A DNA stretch of 64,000 nucleotides, from NCBI GenBank assembly GCA_902593905.1, contig CACJKF010000002.1:1742-65741 (forward strand), given 5' to 3'. Under the pieces are notes generated by a model. The model made no database searches. It was given only the letters and a program-made list of their open reading frames with translations, and was not told the origin of the DNA. The position numbers and the translations under genes were made by a program. How positions within the stretch are numbered: position 1 is the stretch's first letter; every line of letters begins with the position of its first letter. Below, piece by piece: positions 35,464 to 44,994 of this stretch. The stretch is from an uncultured Pelagibacteraceae bacterium. GTDB lineage: Bacteria > Pseudomonadota > Alphaproteobacteria > Pelagibacterales > Pelagibacteraceae.

Positions 35464-36135
35464 ATGTTTTCAAAAGAATTAGGCTCAAAATTAGACAGGT
35501 ATCACTTATTAAAACATCCATTTTATCAAATTTATTGGAACGAGGGAAAATTAAATAGAGAGATTATAAAAGATTATGCCGAGCAGTATTATCAGCACGT
35601 AAAAGCCTTTCCAAGATATATTAGCGCTACGCATTCCATTTGTGAAGATATTGAAAAAAGAAGAATTCTTTTAGAAAATTTACAAGATGAAGAAAATAAG
35701 GATGGGGATCACCCTAAGCTGTGGAAAAATTTTGCTAAAGCGCTGGGAGCTGACGAAAAAGAAATTGAAAAAGTAAAACTTGATTGGTTCACAAAAGATA
35801 TGATTGATAATTTTTTTGCTCAAGCAAGAAAATCATATGCTGAAGGTCTCGCTTCATTATATACTTATGAAAGACAAATACCTGAAATTGCTGAAACAAA
35901 AATACAAGGATTAAAGAAATTCTATGGAGTAAGCTCAAAGGCAGGTCTTGAATTTTTTGAAGCACATAAATCAGCTGATGTAATTCATAGAGCTGAATGT
36001 GAAAAATTATTGGATAGTTTATCAAAAGAGGAGCAAGAGAAGGCAGAAACAGCTTCTTTATTAACCGCTAGATATCTTTGGAACTTCTTAAGTGGCATGA
36101 CTTCTAAGCATAAACTACAAACTATTGCGGCTTAA
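35464..36135 (+). CDS. CADD/CT610-family dimetal oxidase, putative alternative p-aminobenzoate synthase
   Basis: HLLKHPFY..W, YAEQYYQHV.AFPRY, ENL.DEE..H, YE.QIPEIAETKI.GL, FF.AH..AD..H. Confidence 0.85.
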   Translation: MFSKELGSKLDRYHLLKHPFYQIYWNEGKLNREIIKDYAEQYYQHVKAFPRYISATHSICEDIEKRRILLENLQDEENKDGDHPKLWKNFAKALGADEKEIEKVKLDWFTKDMIDNFFAQARKSYAEGLASLYTYERQIPEIAETKIQGLKKFYGVSSKAGLEFFEAHKSADVIHRAECEKLLDSLSKEEQEKAETASLLTARYLWNFLSGMTSKHKLQTIAA

Positions 36136-36157: not shown

Positions 36158-36538
36158 ATGAAGAACGATAATCACGTCTGGGATAATAAACATCCTACAG
36201 CGCAAATGTTAGGTCGATGGCAACCTTGGCATGAAGGGCATCAAAAACTTTTTGAGGAAACTTTAAAAAAAACAGGGCAAGTGAACATTATGGTTAGAGA
36301 TGTTAAAGGCGTTGACGATAACCCTTTTGACTTTGAAACAGTAAAAAAAAATATTCTTAATGCATTAAAAGATTACAAAAATCGAATTCAAGTTACATTG
36401 GTTCCAAATATTACAAATATTTGTTATGGAAGAGGGGTAGGTTACAAAATAGAGGAGATAGTTCTAGACGAAAAGACGCAACAAATCTCAGCTACCAAAA
36501 TTAGAGAGCAAATGAGAAAAGAAGGCAAACTCAAATAA
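36158..36538 (+). CDS. Minimal HxGH nucleotidyltransferase (cytidyltransferase-like)
   Basis: GRWQPWHEGH and ISATKIRE motifs; 126 aa. Confidence 0.8.
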   Translation: MKNDNHVWDNKHPTAQMLGRWQPWHEGHQKLFEETLKKTGQVNIMVRDVKGVDDNPFDFETVKKNILNALKDYKNRIQVTLVPNITNICYGRGVGYKIEEIVLDEKTQQISATKIREQMRKEGKLK

Positions 36539-36539
36539 A

Positions 36540-36584
36540 TGAGAAACGTTCTCACTTGACCTCTTTTAATCAAACCTTTAAGAG
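36540..36584 (+). promoter_or_regulatory. Putative aprM promoter with adjacent palindrome
   Basis: TGAGAA-N3-TTCTCA directly before TTGACC-N17-TAAGAG; ATG 6 nt later with no SD. Confidence 0.45.
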
Positions 36585-36590
36585 TTAATT

Positions 36591-37382
36591 ATGTTAACAA
36601 CAAATCCGTTTGCAGACCTAGCAACAGTAATTCCAGCCTTTTTGATGCAATATTTCGTAATTGCTATGGTTCTTTTAATAATAGTTGGAACTGGTTTAGA
36701 TATGTTGCATAAAAAAAACGTTATTTATTTTTTTAGAAATGCACAAAAAGCAAAAAAATCTGCAAAAAATGAGTTAACTACAGGAAAAAAAACAGCGGTT
36801 ATTTTAAAAACAGTAGCACACGATATTGCTACTACTTCAGAATTGGGTTGGGGGAAAAGAAGACTCGCACATGTATTAGGAATGTATGGAACAATAATAT
36901 TTTGGATAGGTTCAGTTGTTTTAATTTTTAAATATTCTGAGGGAGCCGTTGCTCCTTCTTATATTCCGATTATTTGGCACGCAGGAGCAATAATGACCTG
37001 TCTTGGAGGTTATTGGTTTTGGTTTTTTTTAAGAGTAGACGTGTCCGCAGAAGCTCATCCTTGGTATAGAATTATAACTGCAGATTTATTTGTTTTAGCA
37101 TTACTAGCCTGTGCAACTTTTGGATTAGCATGGTCACTCACTCAAACTGCAGGTATGAGCGGACTGAGTTACTTATTCTTAGTTCTTTTTATTTTGTCTA
37201 ATTTAGTTTTATTTGGAGGAGTTTATTGGTCTAAATTTGCCCATATGTTTTATAAGCCTGGTGCAGCAATTCAAAAAAATTTAGCTGAAGCCGACGGCTC
37301 CAGAGACAATTTGCCTCCACCGGCTGATGCCCCTGAGCAATTTGGGTTAGGAATTAAAAGAGAGGAACCAAAACATTATTAA
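36591..37382 (+). CDS. aprM: APS reductase membrane anchor AprM
   Basis: 5-TM; RRLAHVLGMYG, WFWFFLRVDV, WSKFAHMFYKP; directly upstream of aprB. Confidence 0.88.
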   Translation: MLTTNPFADLATVIPAFLMQYFVIAMVLLIIVGTGLDMLHKKNVIYFFRNAQKAKKSAKNELTTGKKTAVILKTVAHDIATTSELGWGKRRLAHVLGMYGTIIFWIGSVVLIFKYSEGAVAPSYIPIIWHAGAIMTCLGGYWFWFFLRVDVSAEAHPWYRIITADLFVLALLACATFGLAWSLTQTAGMSGLSYLFLVLFILSNLVLFGGVYWSKFAHMFYKPGAAIQKNLAEADGSRDNLPPPADAPEQFGLGIKREEPKHY

Positions 37383-37449: not shown

Positions 37450-37920
37450 ATGTCAACATTTGTTTATATGACTAGATGTGATGGTTGCGGTCATTGCGTA
37501 GATATCTGTCCGTCAGATATCATGCATATTGACGAAACTATTAGAAGAGCCAAAAATATTGAACCAAATTTTTGTTGGGAATGTTATTCATGTGTAAAAG
37601 CTTGTCCTAATCACGCAATTGATGTTAGGGGTTACGCAGATTTTGCGCCTATGGGTCACAGTGTTAGAGTTAGAAGAGAGGAAGAAAAAGGAACTATCTC
37701 GTGGAAAATTAAATTTAGAAACGGTACTGAGAAAAATTTCGTTTCACCTATCACTACTAAACCTTGGGGAAAATTTATTCCAAAACTTGCTGAGGGAGAT
37801 AAACCAAGACAAGGAGAGATGAATTCTCAAGTTTTATACTCAGAGCCTGAAGGTTTAGATACAAAAAAAGATTTACCGACAATCAGCAAAGACTCATTTA
37901 AAAAAGGTGTTTATTATTAA
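37450..37920 (+). CDS. aprB: Adenylylsulfate reductase beta subunit
   Basis: CDGCGHCVDICP and CWECYSCVKACP 2x[4Fe-4S]; VRGYADF. Confidence 0.96.
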   Translation: MSTFVYMTRCDGCGHCVDICPSDIMHIDETIRRAKNIEPNFCWECYSCVKACPNHAIDVRGYADFAPMGHSVRVRREEEKGTISWKIKFRNGTEKNFVSPITTKPWGKFIPKLAEGDKPRQGEMNSQVLYSEPEGLDTKKDLPTISKDSFKKGVYY

Positions 37921-39779
37921 TGCCTAAAAATAAAACAGTTCACGAAAACTGCGATGTATTAGTTGTGGGCGGAGGTATGGCTGGAACTGGTGCAACTTTT
38001 GAAGCTAGACATTGGGGAAGAGATCTAAAAATAATTTGTGTAGAAAAAGCAAACATTGATAGAAGTGGCGCAGTTGCTCAAGGACTTTATGCAATTAACT
38101 GTTATATGGGTATGAGATGGAATGAAAACCAACCCGAGGACCATGTAAGGTATGCAAGAAACGATTTAATGGGATTAGTGAGAGAGGACTTGGGTTACGA
38201 CATGGCACGCCACGTAGACTCAACTGTTCATATGTTTGATGAATGGGGTCTTCCAATGATGAAAGATAAAAAAACAGGAAGATATCAAAGAGAGGGAAAG
38301 TGGCAAATAATGATCCATGGTGAAAGTTATAAACCAATAGTAGCTGAAGCAGCAAAAAAATCCGCTGATAAAATTTATAATAGAATAATGATTACTCATC
38401 TTTTAATGGACGAGAATAAAGAGAATAGAGTAGGAGGAGCTGTTGGCTTTAATATGAGAACAGGTGATTACCACGTGTTTAGAGCAAAAACAGTTATAGT
38501 TGCAGCTGGAGGAGCCTCGCACATTTTTAAACCAAGAGCAGTCGGAGAAGGCATGGGTAGAACTTGGTATGCTCCATGGAGCAATGGATCTGCATATGCA
38601 TTACCGATTGCAGCAGGTGCAAAAATGACTCAAATGGAAAATAGAATTGTATTATGTAGGTTTAAAGATGGGTATGGTCCTGTAGGAGCCTATTTCTTAC
38701 ATTTAAAAACTTACACTCAAAATGCGAATGGTGAAAATTATGAGAAAAAATGGTACGACCAAACTAAAAAGTTAGTAGGTGAATATATTGATCATCATCC
38801 AGTTCCAACTTGCTTGAGAAATCATGCATTTATTCAAGAGGTCATGGCAGGAGGAGGACCAATTCACATGGTTACAAAAGAAGCATTCCAAGATCCTCAT
38901 CTAGAAACAGTTGGCTGGGAAAACTTTTTAGGTATGACTGTAGGCCAAGCTGTAGTATGGGCTTCACAAAATATAGATCCTAAATATACCAATCCAGAAT
39001 TAACCACTTCAGAGCCTTATGTAATGGGATCACACGCTACTTGTTCAGGTGCATGGGTAAGCGGACCTGAGGATATTTCTCCTAAAGAGTATTTTTGGGG
39101 TTACAATAGAATGACAACAATTGATGGATTATTCGGAGCTGGTGATACAGTTGGAGGAAGTGCACATAAATTCTCCTCAGGATCTTTTACAGAGGGAAGA
39201 TTAGCTGCAAAAGCTGCCGTTAAATATATTGAAGATCAAAAAGCCACTGATCTTAAAGTTTCAGATAAACAGTGTGATGAATTTAGAGAAATTATTTATA
39301 AACCTTTAGATAATTATACAGTAAATAGAAATGAAATTACTGGTGGAACAGTTTCTCCTAGTTATATCTCACCAATTCAAGGGTTACAAAGACTTCAAAA
39401 AATTATGGACGAGTATGTTGGTGGTATTACTGCAAATTACATGACTAATGACAATTTACTTAAAAAAGGTTTAGAGCTTTTAGATTGGCTTCAAGAAGAT
39501 TTGGAAAATGTTGGCGCAGAGGATTATCATCAACTTATGAGAGCTTGGGAATTAAAACATAGAACACTAACATCTCAATGTGTAACAGAACATACTCTTT
39601 TTAGAGAAGAGACTAGATGGCCTGGCTATTATTACAGAGGAGACAAATTAAAATTAGATGATGAGAATTGGCATTGTTTAACTGTTTCAAGAAGAGACCC
39701 AAAAACAGGAAAATTTAGTTTAGAAAAAATGCCGGTGTACCACATAGTAGGTGACGAAAAAGAAAAGAAAGCTTCATAA
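37920..39779 (+). CDS. aprA: Adenylylsulfate reductase alpha subunit
   Basis: RSGAVAQGL.AIN, WQIMIHGESYK, HKFSSGSFTEGR, REETRWPGYYYR. Confidence 0.97.
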   Translation: MPKNKTVHENCDVLVVGGGMAGTGATFEARHWGRDLKIICVEKANIDRSGAVAQGLYAINCYMGMRWNENQPEDHVRYARNDLMGLVREDLGYDMARHVDSTVHMFDEWGLPMMKDKKTGRYQREGKWQIMIHGESYKPIVAEAAKKSADKIYNRIMITHLLMDENKENRVGGAVGFNMRTGDYHVFRAKTVIVAAGGASHIFKPRAVGEGMGRTWYAPWSNGSAYALPIAAGAKMTQMENRIVLCRFKDGYGPVGAYFLHLKTYTQNANGENYEKKWYDQTKKLVGEYIDHHPVPTCLRNHAFIQEVMAGGGPIHMVTKEAFQDPHLETVGWENFLGMTVGQAVVWASQNIDPKYTNPELTTSEPYVMGSHATCSGAWVSGPEDISPKEYFWGYNRMTTIDGLFGAGDTVGGSAHKFSSGSFTEGRLAAKAAVKYIEDQKATDLKVSDKQCDEFREIIYKPLDNYTVNRNEITGGTVSPSYISPIQGLQRLQKIMDEYVGGITANYMTNDNLLKKGLELLDWLQEDLENVGAEDYHQLMRAWELKHRTLTSQCVTEHTLFREETRWPGYYYRGDKLKLDDENWHCLTVSRRDPKTGKFSLEKMPVYHIVGDEKEKKAS

Positions 39780-39788
39780 ACTATTTTC

Positions 39789-40139
39789 ATGGATTTGATA
39801 AACAAGAGTGATGATGAAATCATCAAAATAGCCAATCCTATTTGGGAAAATTTAGTAAGATCATCAAATAATAAAGATTACGGTAGTTTCACAAAAGATT
39901 TTTCATCTCAAATGCTTTACGGAGCAAATGAAGTAGAACTTGGAAAGCAGTGGGCTAATAATAAATTACTTACAAGTTTGTCAGAAAAACAAGAGTTTTT
40001 AGGTTGCATAAGAAGAGATAAATTCATCACTGTTCTTTATAAACAAAAAAGCAATACCGTATCTGGAGAGTTTCTTGGGAGATTAGTTCTAGGATTGGAA
40101 GGGGACATGGTAAAAGTCTTTGGAGCAACAATTTATTAA
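39789..40139 (+). CDS. Hypothetical protein immediately after aprA
   Basis: 116-aa ORF 9 bp downstream of aprA; alpha+beta pattern. Confidence 0.65.
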   Translation: MDLINKSDDEIIKIANPIWENLVRSSNNKDYGSFTKDFSSQMLYGANEVELGKQWANNKLLTSLSEKQEFLGCIRRDKFITVLYKQKSNTVSGEFLGRLVLGLEGDMVKVFGATIY

Positions 40140-41282: not shown

Positions 41283-41678
41283 TTACTTTTTTTTGTATTT
41301 TTGTTTTTCAGGTATTACACCTCTCACTCCCCCCCTAGGATCTTTTACATCTCCTTTTCTTCTAGGAATTAAATGAATATGACAGTGCATGATAGACTGA
41401 CCAGCATCTTCACCAATATTAACTCCGATGTTAAATCCTGATATACCACTATCTAAATTTATTAATTCTTTTTTTTGCTGTTTAATTACTTTGTCTAATT
41501 CTACAATCTCATCTTTATCTAAATCAAAATAACTACTCACATGTCTATTGGTAATAATCAAGGTGTGATGCTTGGTAACAGGATAAGCGGTATCTCTTAT
41601 GATAAAAAAAAATTTTGTAGATTTGATTATTTTACAGTTTTTTTTTGAACAAAATATACAATCTTCTAAGGAAGACAT
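41283..41678 (-). CDS. HIT-family nucleotide hydrolase
   Basis: CIFC; GFNIGVN.G..AGQ..HCHIHLIPR histidine triad. Confidence 0.92.
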   Translation of the reverse strand: MSSLEDCIFCSKKNCKIIKSTKFFFIIRDTAYPVTKHHTLIITNRHVSSYFDLDKDEIVELDKVIKQQKKELINLDSGISGFNIGVNIGEDAGQSIMHCHIHLIPRRKGDVKDPRGGVRGVIPEKQKYKKK

Positions 41679-43212: not shown

Positions 43213-44994
43213 ATGGCTAAAATGACAACTGAAGAAGCTTTTGTAAAAGTCTTACAAATGCATGGCATTGAACATGCATTTGGAATTATTGGATCTGCGT
43301 TTATGCCTATTTCAGATATTTTTCCAGATGCAGGTATTACTTTCTGGGATGTTGCCCACGAAACTAATGGAGGCTTAATTGCAGACGGTTACACAAGAGC
43401 GACAGGAAAAATGTCAATGGTTGTTGCACAAAATGGTCCTGGAATAACTGGGTTGGTTACGCCAATTAAAACTGCTTACTGGAACCATACTCCTCTACTT
43501 TTAGTTACCCCTCAAGCAGCAAACAAAACAATGGGTCAAGGTGGATTCCAAGAAGTTGAACAAATGAATTTATTTAAAGACATGGTTTGTTATCAAGAAG
43601 AGGTTAGAGATCCATCTAGAATCGCAGAGGTTTTAAATAGAGTTATAGAAAAAGCCATTAGAGGTTCAGCTCCAGCACAAATAAATGTACCAAGAGATTA
43701 TTGGACACAAGTAATAGATATTGATTTACCTCCAATCGTAAGACTAGAAAGACAAGCTGGCGGTGCAGCAGCGATAGAAGAAGCGGCAAAATTACTTTCT
43801 AGCGCTAAATTTCCTGTAATTTTATCAGGTGCAGGTGTAGTAATCGGCGGAGCAATTAAAGACTGTGTGAAGCTTGCTGAAAAATTAGATTCACCAGTAT
43901 GTTCTGGCTACCAACATAACGATAGTTTCCCAGGAAGCCATCCATTAGCAGTGGGACCTTTAGGTTACAATGGTTCAAAAGCTGCGATGGAATTAATTGC
44001 AAAAGCAGATGTTGTCTTAGCACTAGGCACAAGATTAAATCCTTTTTCTACTTTACCAGGTTACGGCATTGATTATTGGCCAAAGAATGCAAAAATTATT
44101 CAGGTAGATATGAATTCAGATCGAATAGGTTTAACTAAAAAAGTGACCGTCGGAATTTGCGGAGACGCTAAGTTAGTAGCTCAACAATTATTAAGTAAAT
44201 TATCACCAAAAGCAGGTGATACTGACAGACAAAAGAGAAAAGATTTAATTCACCAAACAAAATCAGCTTGGTTACAAAAACTTTCTAGCTTAGATCATGA
44301 AGACGATGATCCAGGCACAGTTTGGAATAAGGAGGCAAGAGAAAGAGATAAGGATCGAATGTCCCCAAGGCAAGCTTGGAGAGCAATTCAAGCAGGAATG
44401 CCTGAAGATGTAATAATCTCAAGCGATATAGGAAATAATTGTGCTATAGGAAACGCTTATCCAACTTTTGAAAAAGGAAGAAAATATTTAGCACCAGGCT
44501 TATTCGGCCCTTGCGGATACGGTTTTCCATCTATCTTAGGTGCTAAAATTGGTTGCCCTGATACCCCTGTAATTGGTTTTGCAGGTGATGGAGCATTTGG
44601 AATTAGTATGAATGAAATGAGTTCATGTGCACGTGAAGAGTGGCCAGCTATTTCAATGGTTATATTTAGAAACTACCAATGGGGCGCAGAAAAAAGAAAT
44701 ACTACATTATGGTTTGATAATAATTTTATAGGAACAGAATTAGATCCAGAATTAAGTTACGCAAAAGTTGCTAATGCATGTGGCTTAAAAGGAGTTACAG
44801 TAAAAACTATGGAAGAAACCACTAAAGCTATTAAACAATCATGTGAAGATCAAAAAAAAGGTATTACAACATTTATTGAAGTAATACTTAACCAAGAATT
44901 AGGTGAGCCATTCAGAAGAGATGCTATGAAAAAACCAGTGAGAGTGGCTGGGATTAAAAAAGAGGATATGAAACCTCAAAAAGGCTTAAACTAA
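43213..44994 (+). CDS. xsc: Sulfoacetaldehyde acetyltransferase
   Basis: MTTEEAFVKVLQMHG, TPP motif GDGAFG..N, WGAEKRN, ELGEPFRRDAM. Confidence 0.96.
   Translation: MAKMTTEEAFVKVLQMHGIEHAFGIIGSAFMPISDIFPDAGITFWDVAHETNGGLIADGYTRATGKMSMVVAQNGPGITGLVTPIKTAYWNHTPLLLVTPQAANKTMGQGGFQEVEQMNLFKDMVCYQEEVRDPSRIAEVLNRVIEKAIRGSAPAQINVPRDYWTQVIDIDLPPIVRLERQAGGAAAIEEAAKLLSSAKFPVILSGAGVVIGGAIKDCVKLAEKLDSPVCSGYQHNDSFPGSHPLAVGPLGYNGSKAAMELIAKADVVLALGTRLNPFSTLPGYGIDYWPKNAKIIQVDMNSDRIGLTKKVTVGICGDAKLVAQQLLSKLSPKAGDTDRQKRKDLIHQTKSAWLQKLSSLDHEDDDPGTVWNKEARERDKDRMSPRQAWRAIQAGMPEDVIISSDIGNNCAIGNAYPTFEKGRKYLAPGLFGPCGYGFPSILGAKIGCPDTPVIGFAGDGAFGISMNEMSSCAREEWPAISMVIFRNYQWGAEKRNTTLWFDNNFIGTELDPELSYAKVANACGLKGVTVKTMEETTKAIKQSCEDQKKGITTFIEVILNQELGEPFRRDAMKKPVRVAGIKKEDMKPQKGLN

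Follow-up and report, generated by a model that had tools for sequence, protein, structure and literature searches.

What enzyme takes up the APS that SAR11 bacteria would make from sulfite? Two kinds of ATP sulfurylase are the natural points of comparison. One is CysD/CysN, a PP-loop subunit plus a GTPase. The other is Sat, represented here by the Thermus thermophilus (1v47) and Allochromatium vinosum (4dnx) proteins, which runs to about 340–400 residues. In A. vinosum, sat lies upstream of aprMBA and is co-transcribed with it, and in its product the QxRN and GRD loops bind APS while HxxH and SGTxxR bind PPi (PMC3779200, available text). In the PAPS synthases and Sat-CysC fusions, such as human PAPSS1 (1x6v) and the Aquifex protein (2gks), an APS kinase is fused to an HxGH adenylyltransferase; for the kinase-first PAPSS1, the accessible part of a docking study places R421 and R522 at the sulfate (PMC11697783). 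For SAR11, the published account, as far as its text is available, lists sat and cysDN as absent, treats AprBA as a sulfite detoxifier and states no fate for APS (PMC5069961). Table 3 of that paper covers seven SAR11 strains: the five with cysC are also the five with aprA, and cysH and cysI are listed for none. Elsewhere, in the portions available, sat is credited to HTCC9565 only among SAR11 (PMC3448164), and ATP from sulfite is said to require sat (PMC5864207).

The window, by which we mean the whole 64,000-nucleotide stretch analysed, comes from an uncultured member of the Pelagibacteraceae (source genome G000). The first-pass annotation had described a 126-residue nucleotidyltransferase (NTase) carrying GRWQPWHEGH and ISATKIRE directly before aprM-aprB-aprA. 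We recovered the ORF, both motifs (ISATKIRE spans residues 110–117) and a 52-bp gap between the NTase ORF and the 263-residue membrane ORF taken as aprM. The features discussed below are as follows.

35464..36135, + strand: CADD/TenA-family gene (TIGR04305 above cut-off), 22 bp upstream of the NTase ORF
36158..36538, + strand: stand-alone 126-residue HxGH (HUP-fold) nucleotidyltransferase with an ATG start, predicted to be a minimal ATP sulfurylase
36212..36241, + strand: GRWQPWHEGH motif, residues 19–28, spaced as in NadM; in alignment R20 falls on the Arg of QxRN in Sat
36296..36298, + strand: R47, at the position of NadM's GS(A/H/T); of 78 family rows, 73 have Arg here and the other 5 have Lys
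36425..36445, + strand: YGRGVGY, residues 90–96; the consensus in the family is YGRDVGY, similar to the GRD loop of Sat
36485..36505, + strand: ISATKIR, residues 110–116, corresponding to SGTxxR in Sat and to the equivalent motif of NadM
36540..36584, + strand: probable own promoter of aprMBA (palindrome 36540–36554, −35-like TTGACC 36556–36561, −10-like TAAGAG 36579–36584)
36591..37382, + strand: aprM, membrane anchor of the lineage-I APS reductase, assigned by position (PMC2211403, available text)
37450..37920, + strand: aprB (TIGR02060, 189 bits against a cut-off of 136)
37920..39779, + strand: aprA (TIGR02061, 993 bits against a cut-off of 642)
43213..44994, + strand: xsc, near the apr block, encoding the sulfite-releasing sulfoacetaldehyde acetyltransferase (TIGR03457 above cut-off)

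The NTase gene is real and under constraint. The median dN/dS of its orthologues against the window copy is 0.023 (23 non-saturated pairs out of 52 ungapped orthologues). Among the loci fetched, it is the gene immediately 5′ of aprM in 49 of the 52 genome loci that show aprM. Contigs assembled from marine RNA (four runs) also match it at a likeness of at least 85%, but as contigs are silent on level, strand and co-transcription we give this match no weight. All library matches of the aprM ORF are weak, the best being QmoC (E 7e-6). Downstream of aprA lie tauE, a HIT-family gene, a UxaA-family pair and xsc. As sulfite releasers, Xsc and SuyAB had both been named; Xsc stands, but the SuyAB assignment comes down to a sub-cut-off UxaA/GarD-family match and its context. 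Two other genes travel with the block. The CADD-family gene is kept in 50 of the 52 loci with aprM, though the order varies (CADD-NTase-aprM, NTase-MFS-CADD-aprM or kinase-NTase-CADD-aprM), and directly 3′ of aprA a 116-residue ORF (39789–40139) with no Pfam or NCBIfam match recurs in nearly all loci that reach past aprA.

The absence of sat that had been noted for the window extends to the whole G000 assembly, 77% complete, which gives no match to the Sat domain (PF01747); CysD, cysH and cysI were likewise not found in it. Since the assembly is 77% complete, a canonical ATP sulfurylase gene could be unassembled. The housekeeping roles of HxGH proteins are held elsewhere: G000 has NadD above cut-off and a RibF-sized ORF, and a separate true CoaD is found in four of four near-complete relatives. 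We propose that the NTase is likely the ATP sulfurylase that SAR11 is described as lacking, a reading well supported by comparative genomics that we set out below.

What partners does this NTase keep elsewhere? Among the best 120 of 5821 longer homologues, 112 contain an APS kinase domain (PF01583), and the kinase-fused homologues in this set are 79–89% identical to the window NTase; in a second sample, 20 of 35 longer representatives scanned (35 of 150 listed) contain it. Three fusions carry a full APS kinase above the TIGR00455 cut-off, and they do so in both domain orders: P0375 is NTase-then-kinase (234 against 139 bits), and P0365 and the haloarchaeal L099 are kinase-then-NTase. Most fused homologues are kinase-first, as is human PAPSS1. 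Compared with the PAPS synthases, they are short, at about 250–310 residues with a transferase of about 120 residues, while the window NTase stands alone, the kinase of its genome being encoded on a different contig. Of the 80 closest viral loci, which are best matches and not a random sample, 60 have the kinase fused to the NTase and a further 18 have it adjacent. The partner kinase in SAR11 is truncated and weak on PF01583 (E 1e-6 to 1e-11); it keeps the P-loop as well as the DxxR, F, ExR and Pro columns of full kinases. A few odd long homologues (with chorismate synthase, DHQ synthase or UCH domains; P0123) appear to be isolated chimeric assemblies, and we set them aside.

Sulfotransferase genes adjoin the fusion at all three haloarchaeal plasmid loci fetched, lie near it in the SAR11 islands L066 and L074 (with three further candidates that have no Pfam match), and adjoin the fused genes in G350 and in a Microvirga nod cluster. 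In the source genome itself, the unfused mini-kinase on contig C17 directly follows a sulfotransferase gene (PF00685, E 3e-26). The haloarchaeal plasmids (L099–L101) share a conserved cassette of sulfotransferase, cysC::NTase and YqcI/YcgG. Cultured phages with a kinase-NTase fusion include Xylella phage Sano (L104, 4561–6330) and L103; in phage Sano the fusion is preceded by a weak sulfotransferase-like gene and a NADAR gene. In the family tree, whose bootstrap is not fully settled and in which rows L090 and L294 are labelled "adjacent" without an adjacent kinase, the 12 stand-alone NTase copies form one clade (98/80) nested among kinase-fused copies. Because the stand-alone copies form this single nested clade, the placement of the gene before aprM, which the first-pass annotation had called a sat slot, would be one event in the window's lineage. 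The term fits the window's genus, where the NTase lies within 5 kb of aprA in every aprA genome, and fails as a general rule, given the single clade and the probable separate promoter of aprM.

Operons in which a sulfate-activating enzyme is missing from its usual place point the same way. In the alphaproteobacterial family f187, six of the seven loci fetched carry the operon cobA-cysI-cysH-DUF2061-kinase-NTase, and the seventh contig ends at cysH. In this streamlined family the operon reads in full cbiX-cobA-cysI-cysH-DUF2061-mini-kinase-NTase (L285, G386:C1, 6992–12165; L298–L303). The NTase is present in 10 of 11 f187 genomes, Sat in one of 11 (in an island) and CysD in none of 11. Each of the 11 genomes has one PF01507 match; it is the operon cysH in the seven loci fetched, and in nine of the 10 NTase carriers it sits about 0.9 kb from the NTase gene. 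These genomes are 54–89% complete, and assembly loss alone is an unlikely cause of the absence because the same absence recurs in all of them. A cysI-cysH-kinase operon needs APS, and the NTase stands in the position of the ATP sulfurylase, the usual operon place of CysD/CysN by cysC-cysH-cysI, and the reaction proposed for it is that of CysD/CysN.

Similarly, in islands of the SAR11 family and of f187, the cassette [cysC]-sat-pyk-like (L096, L297) has a counterpart [cysC]-NTase-pyk-like (L293, L294). The pyruvate-kinase-like genes of the two cassette types are just 27–31% identical; they encode 331–472 residues, and cysC comes first in two cases. In the Microvirga nod cluster, a single case, the fused NTase sits beside intact CysD/CysN and has decayed motifs (HESH, GLDLGY and SPTAVQ): the Gly of HxGH, the GR and the final Arg are lost. 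The locus, on a Microvirga lotononidis plasmid (L102, 5809–11347), holds a sulfotransferase gene, the mini-kinase fused to the decayed NTase, CysD and CysN. The Microvirga CysN ends in DUF2061 without an APS-kinase domain, so that the fused gene probably supplies the missing kinase.

Does the NTase follow the APS reductase across genomes? We profiled 201 family genomes, which are related, so that the counts are not independent, and of which many are incomplete; three weak matches (G142, G005 and the second match in G129; 27–33% identity, E > 1e-4) were dropped before counting, and a contig-end fragment in G042 was kept. The NTase is found in 106 of these genomes, aprA in 85 and the mini-kinase in 85. 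It is present in 102 of the 112 genomes with aprA or the kinase, against four of the 89 with neither, and in 78 of the 85 aprA genomes, among which the Sat domain occurs in four and CysD in none. The seven aprA genomes in which no NTase was found are six drafts of 62–78% completeness and G048, 93% complete; as the G048 contig starts 625 bp before aprM, this genome is no proof of absence. In the window's genus (g1), the NTase lies within 5 kb of aprA in 21 of 21 aprA genomes, and no kinase was found in 17 of these; likewise, two 99%-complete genomes of the Pelagibacter-like genus g8 have the NTase and aprA with no kinase found. The retention of the NTase with aprA where the kinase is missing suggests that Apr depends on the transferase rather than on the kinase.

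Thus the co-occurrence with aprMBA that had been put forward holds, and the synteny holds by lineage. The NTase is within 5 kb of aprA in 36 of the 78 genomes that have both, in none of the 36 g8 genomes, and in genus g4 in a separate kinase-NTase-CADD-aprM arrangement. An anti-correlation with sat, also put forward, does not hold: five of the six Sat-positive family genomes carry the NTase as well, as does G386, and the Sat copies looked at sit in variable island-like contexts, mostly together with the NTase. Conversely, no aprA was found in 28 of the 106 NTase carriers. In one of these carriers, G022 (98% complete), no kinase was found either, and in L050, L052 and G200 the NTase has outlasted a local loss of aprMBA. 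The sub-lineage made up of L292 (from G022), L296 (from G200), L050 and L052 has CADD-NTase-tauE without aprMBA at the locus, which our main reading leaves unexplained. In a 99%-complete aprA-positive genome (G058:C1:283937-284301), the NTase matches fall in two frames, reflecting a frameshift or a sequencing error.

What kind of nucleotidyltransferase is it? No curated family accepts the 126-residue protein, and its best sub-threshold matches are models of the NadM type. PF01467 gives 20.6 bits, just below its cut-off of 21; the NadM models TIGR01527 and NF002243 give 21 against 181 and 26 against 127 bits; the CoaD model NF001985 gives 22 against 104; and the Sat models PF01747 and TIGR00339 give 16.8 against 24.3 and 12.8 against 323. 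None of the CoaD, NadD and RibF family HMMs scores above its cut-off, and CysD/CysN (TIGR02039/TIGR02034) give no match at E 0.1. In a family profile search the N-terminal half finds NadM structures (1f9a, E 9e-14) and the Sat catalytic domain goes unmatched; hhalign against five SAR11 Sat proteins returns a probability of 2.6%, aligning the first motif alone with R20 opposite the Arg of QxRN. The AlphaFold model (78 sequences; pLDDT 95.5) compares best with PPAT (4nah; Z 10.8, rmsd 2.8, 113 aligned) and NadM (Z 10.7, rmsd 2.9, 113 aligned), ahead of the Sat structures 1v47 (Z 8.5, rmsd 3.6, 117 aligned, covering 1v47 residues 148–332 only) and 4dnx (Z 5.6). The top 37 rows of VIA-align all belong to the HUP-fold HxGH nucleotidyltransferase superfamily (Z 5.6–10.8), Foldseek returns two matches at E ≤ 0.001 (PPAT and NadM) with no Sat among the matches listed, and ESM Atlas returns "cytidyltransferase" clusters only. 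In the model only three strands are paired, and one idea is that the C-terminal strands might be completed by a partner subunit.

Because sequence profile and fold are both closer to NadM and PPAT, the NTase is not a trimmed Sat; the profile search, hhalign and the fold ranking (Z 10.7–10.8 against 8.5) speak against a cut-down Sat. The first-pass annotation was right to warn of NadM-like motifs, NadM being the best sequence-profile match and a tied-best fold match, and the structural comparison it had called for bears out a fold shared with the Sat catalytic domain, but not Sat as the closest relative. The NTase is instead a minimal HUP-fold nucleotidyltransferase of the NadM neighbourhood that is also distinct from NadM (MJ0541, 1f9a; MTH, 1ej2; NadM-Nudix, 2qjt/2qjo). 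With NadM it shares GRxQPxHxGH, NPF, GY and SxTxxR. The region of NadM between strand 3 and GY holds the nicotinamide-stacking helix, which with the GS loop makes up the NMN subsite. About 25 NadM residues are missing there (1f9a residues 72–110 against profile positions 176–189), and the GS loop gives way to an invariant basic residue, VRD standing in place of GSA. Further differences from NadM are the GRD/GRG loop and the sulfur, not NAD, context. From CoaD, the automatic JGI label of close homologues, which is likewise a tied-best fold match with HxGH, the NTase differs in falling far under the NF001985 cut-off and in the separate true CoaD of near-complete relatives.

With Sat, in turn, the NTase shares the HUP/HxxH fold and SxTxxR, alongside a loop that resembles GR(D), as well as the place upstream of aprMBA seen in A. 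vinosum and, as proposed, the reaction; it is without the N-terminal barrel, zinc or C-terminal domain, and it has GRWQ in place of QxRN. The sulfate-binding Gln and Asn of QxRN are not conserved (the stretch reads LGRWQP), and only the Arg aligns. The residues of HxGH, which is not specific to Sat, are kept in 76 (H25) and 77 (H28) of 78 family rows, R20 in 76, and S-A/G-T-x-x-R, common to NadM, in 76. In the GRD-like loop, G91 is kept in 78 of 78 rows, R92 in 77 and D93 in 41 (it is Gly in the window protein), the presumed equivalence to Sat being judged from motif order, outside the hhalign alignment. We take R522 of PAPSS1 to be the GRD arginine. R20 and R92 are candidate counterparts of both sulfate arginines of PAPSS1, again as judged from motif order.

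We consider it highly probable that this mini-NTase family is an ATP sulfurylase, catalysing ATP + sulfate = APS + PPi; and if it is, then service to Apr at this locus is more probable still. The core suggestion of the first-pass annotation, a previously unrecognised ATP sulfurylase that serves AprMBA, gains weight from kinase fusions in both orders, co-occurrence with aprA or the kinase, kinase-free retention beside apr and the operon position in f187. For the window ORF itself, a good case can be made that it belongs to a widespread NadM-like family of about 120 residues, one that would likely represent a third type of ATP sulfurylase, and that in this SAR11 it probably runs mainly in reverse, downstream of AprMBA. 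The family is new inside a known superfamily, and what this locus adds is its kinase-free tie to AprMBA. We would expect Xsc, probably with the SuyAB-like pair, to free sulfite from organosulfonates; AprBA would oxidise sulfite with AMP to APS, the electrons leaving via AprM; and the NTase would bind APS and PPi through HxGH, S-A-T-x-x-R and the conserved Arg20, Arg47 and Arg92, yielding sulfate and ATP. The direction APS + PPi → ATP + sulfate is strongly favoured thermodynamically. In cells that possess the mini-APS-kinase and a sulfotransferase as well, as G000 does on contig C17, this pool of APS could also be drawn on to make PAPS for glycan sulfation.

How else might these observations be read? 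The NTase might supply APS solely for PAPS and sulfation, its adjacency to aprM being an accident of lineage and the APS made by Apr being removed in another way, for example by a HIT protein. Most of the NTase family does travel with APS kinase and sulfotransferases, the kinase of G000 adjoins a sulfotransferase gene, carriers in which no aprA was found make up 28 of 106, and aprM probably has its own promoter. The window has, moreover, a HIT-family gene at 41283–41678 that could encode an APS hydrolase or phosphorylase, and HIT proteins can split APS (PMC4613722, available text). We nevertheless regard such a role as unlikely: the kinase was not found in 17 of the 21 aprA-positive g1 genomes or in the two 99%-complete g8 genomes, the HIT gene is present in just 13 of the 46 loci where it would be visible, and a GalT-like (APAT-type) gene was not found in the five genomes tested. 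We think it distinctly unlikely, too, that the NTase adenylylates some other small acceptor in the manner of NadM, be it NMN, NaMN or a phosphorylated metabolite, which the fused kinase would make or use. The shared motifs and the best sequence and structure matches (NadM, PPAT) would suit this, as would the truncation of the SAR11 partner kinase with its weak PF01583 score and the NADAR gene adjoining the fusion in phage Sano. Against it stand the missing 25 or so residues and the basic residue in place of the GS loop, the separate NadD and CoaD genes, and the partners, since the mini-kinase keeps the APS-kinase columns and some partners are full APS kinases. The neighbourhoods differ as well: of four phage NadM loci fetched, two are annotated beside a nicotinamide phosphoribosyltransferase, while the NTase family sits beside sulfur genes.

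An APS hydrolase or an APS:phosphate adenylyltransferase that merely recycles adenylate, and is not a PPi-linked sulfurylase, would fit the tie to Apr and the missing QxRN of Sat. Such an enzyme could not give APS to the cysC-cysH-cysI operon of f187 or to the kinase-sulfotransferase cassettes, and the NTase rows keep HxGH and SxTxxR (76–77 of 78), which bind the phosphates of ATP and PPi in this superfamily (PMC3779200, available text); we hold this reading to be very improbable. Least probable of all, and hardly to be entertained, is the idea that the NTase has no catalytic activity and serves APS kinase and APS reductase as an accessory domain for binding a nucleotide or APS. The very small size of the NTase, the three paired strands of its model and its retention in genomes that also have Sat would be in keeping with it, against which residues of the catalytic type hardly vary in a family that reaches from haloarchaea to phages, and the pathway holes would be left unexplained.

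The preferred reading is thus one in which the NTase is an ATP sulfurylase. In its widest form, which we advance as reasonably probable, it describes a third class of about 120 residues that arose from the NadM branch, without descent from Sat or CysD, and that occurs in SAR11 and other proteobacteria, in haloarchaea and in phages by the thousand. SAR11 would use it to carry sulfite through APS to sulfate, so that some of the ocean's most abundant cells would gain ATP from sulfonates of the taurine type, and for one or more streamlined alphaproteobacterial families it would open the pathway of sulfate assimilation. SAR11 would still be no sulfate assimilator, because neither cysH nor cysI was found in G000 and neither is listed for the seven strains of Table 3 (PMC5069961, available text). 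If this is true, the gap in the fate of APS closes, and SAR11 gains substrate-level ATP from organosulfur carbon sources together with a route to PAPS. Labels such as "cytidyltransferase" and "phosphopantetheine adenylyltransferase" would then conceal a sulfate-activating step in many marine bacteria, archaea and phages, and an ancient enzyme would exist in a very small, probably independently evolved version. A search of the open full-text literature on SAR11 apr and sat, on kinase-nucleotidyltransferase fusions and on new or minimal ATP sulfurylases, with subscription papers outside its scope, found neither a description nor an assay of the NTase family among the papers listed.

Finally, the junction between the NTase gene and aprM bears on how the block is expressed. 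The sequence CTTGACCT followed by a TA-rich −10-like element is kept in all 14 aligned NTase-aprM junctions, in line with the first-pass caveat that aprM has its own promoter, and we conclude from this conservation that it probably does. Compared with A. vinosum sat, then, the NTase gene is probably not co-transcribed from the aprM promoter. A consensus promoter scanner gave nothing above shuffles, and the aprM element was not among its output. A palindrome, TGAGAA-n3-TTCTCA (36540–36554), abuts the −35-like element; it is the sole match in the window, yet 34 of 100 shuffles also yield one. A similar motif occurs in 13 of the 14 junctions, and the fourteenth (L045) carries TGATAATCCTTATCA in its place, which to our eyes resembles a Fur 7-1-7 box; aprMBA may be iron-regulated. 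Across the aprM, aprB and aprA loci (L013–L064), aprBA falls into two classes of identity to the window, at about 95–100% and about 89–93%. The split is not mirrored in the identity of adjacent genes, a pattern that points to recombination of the apr block among members of the genus.
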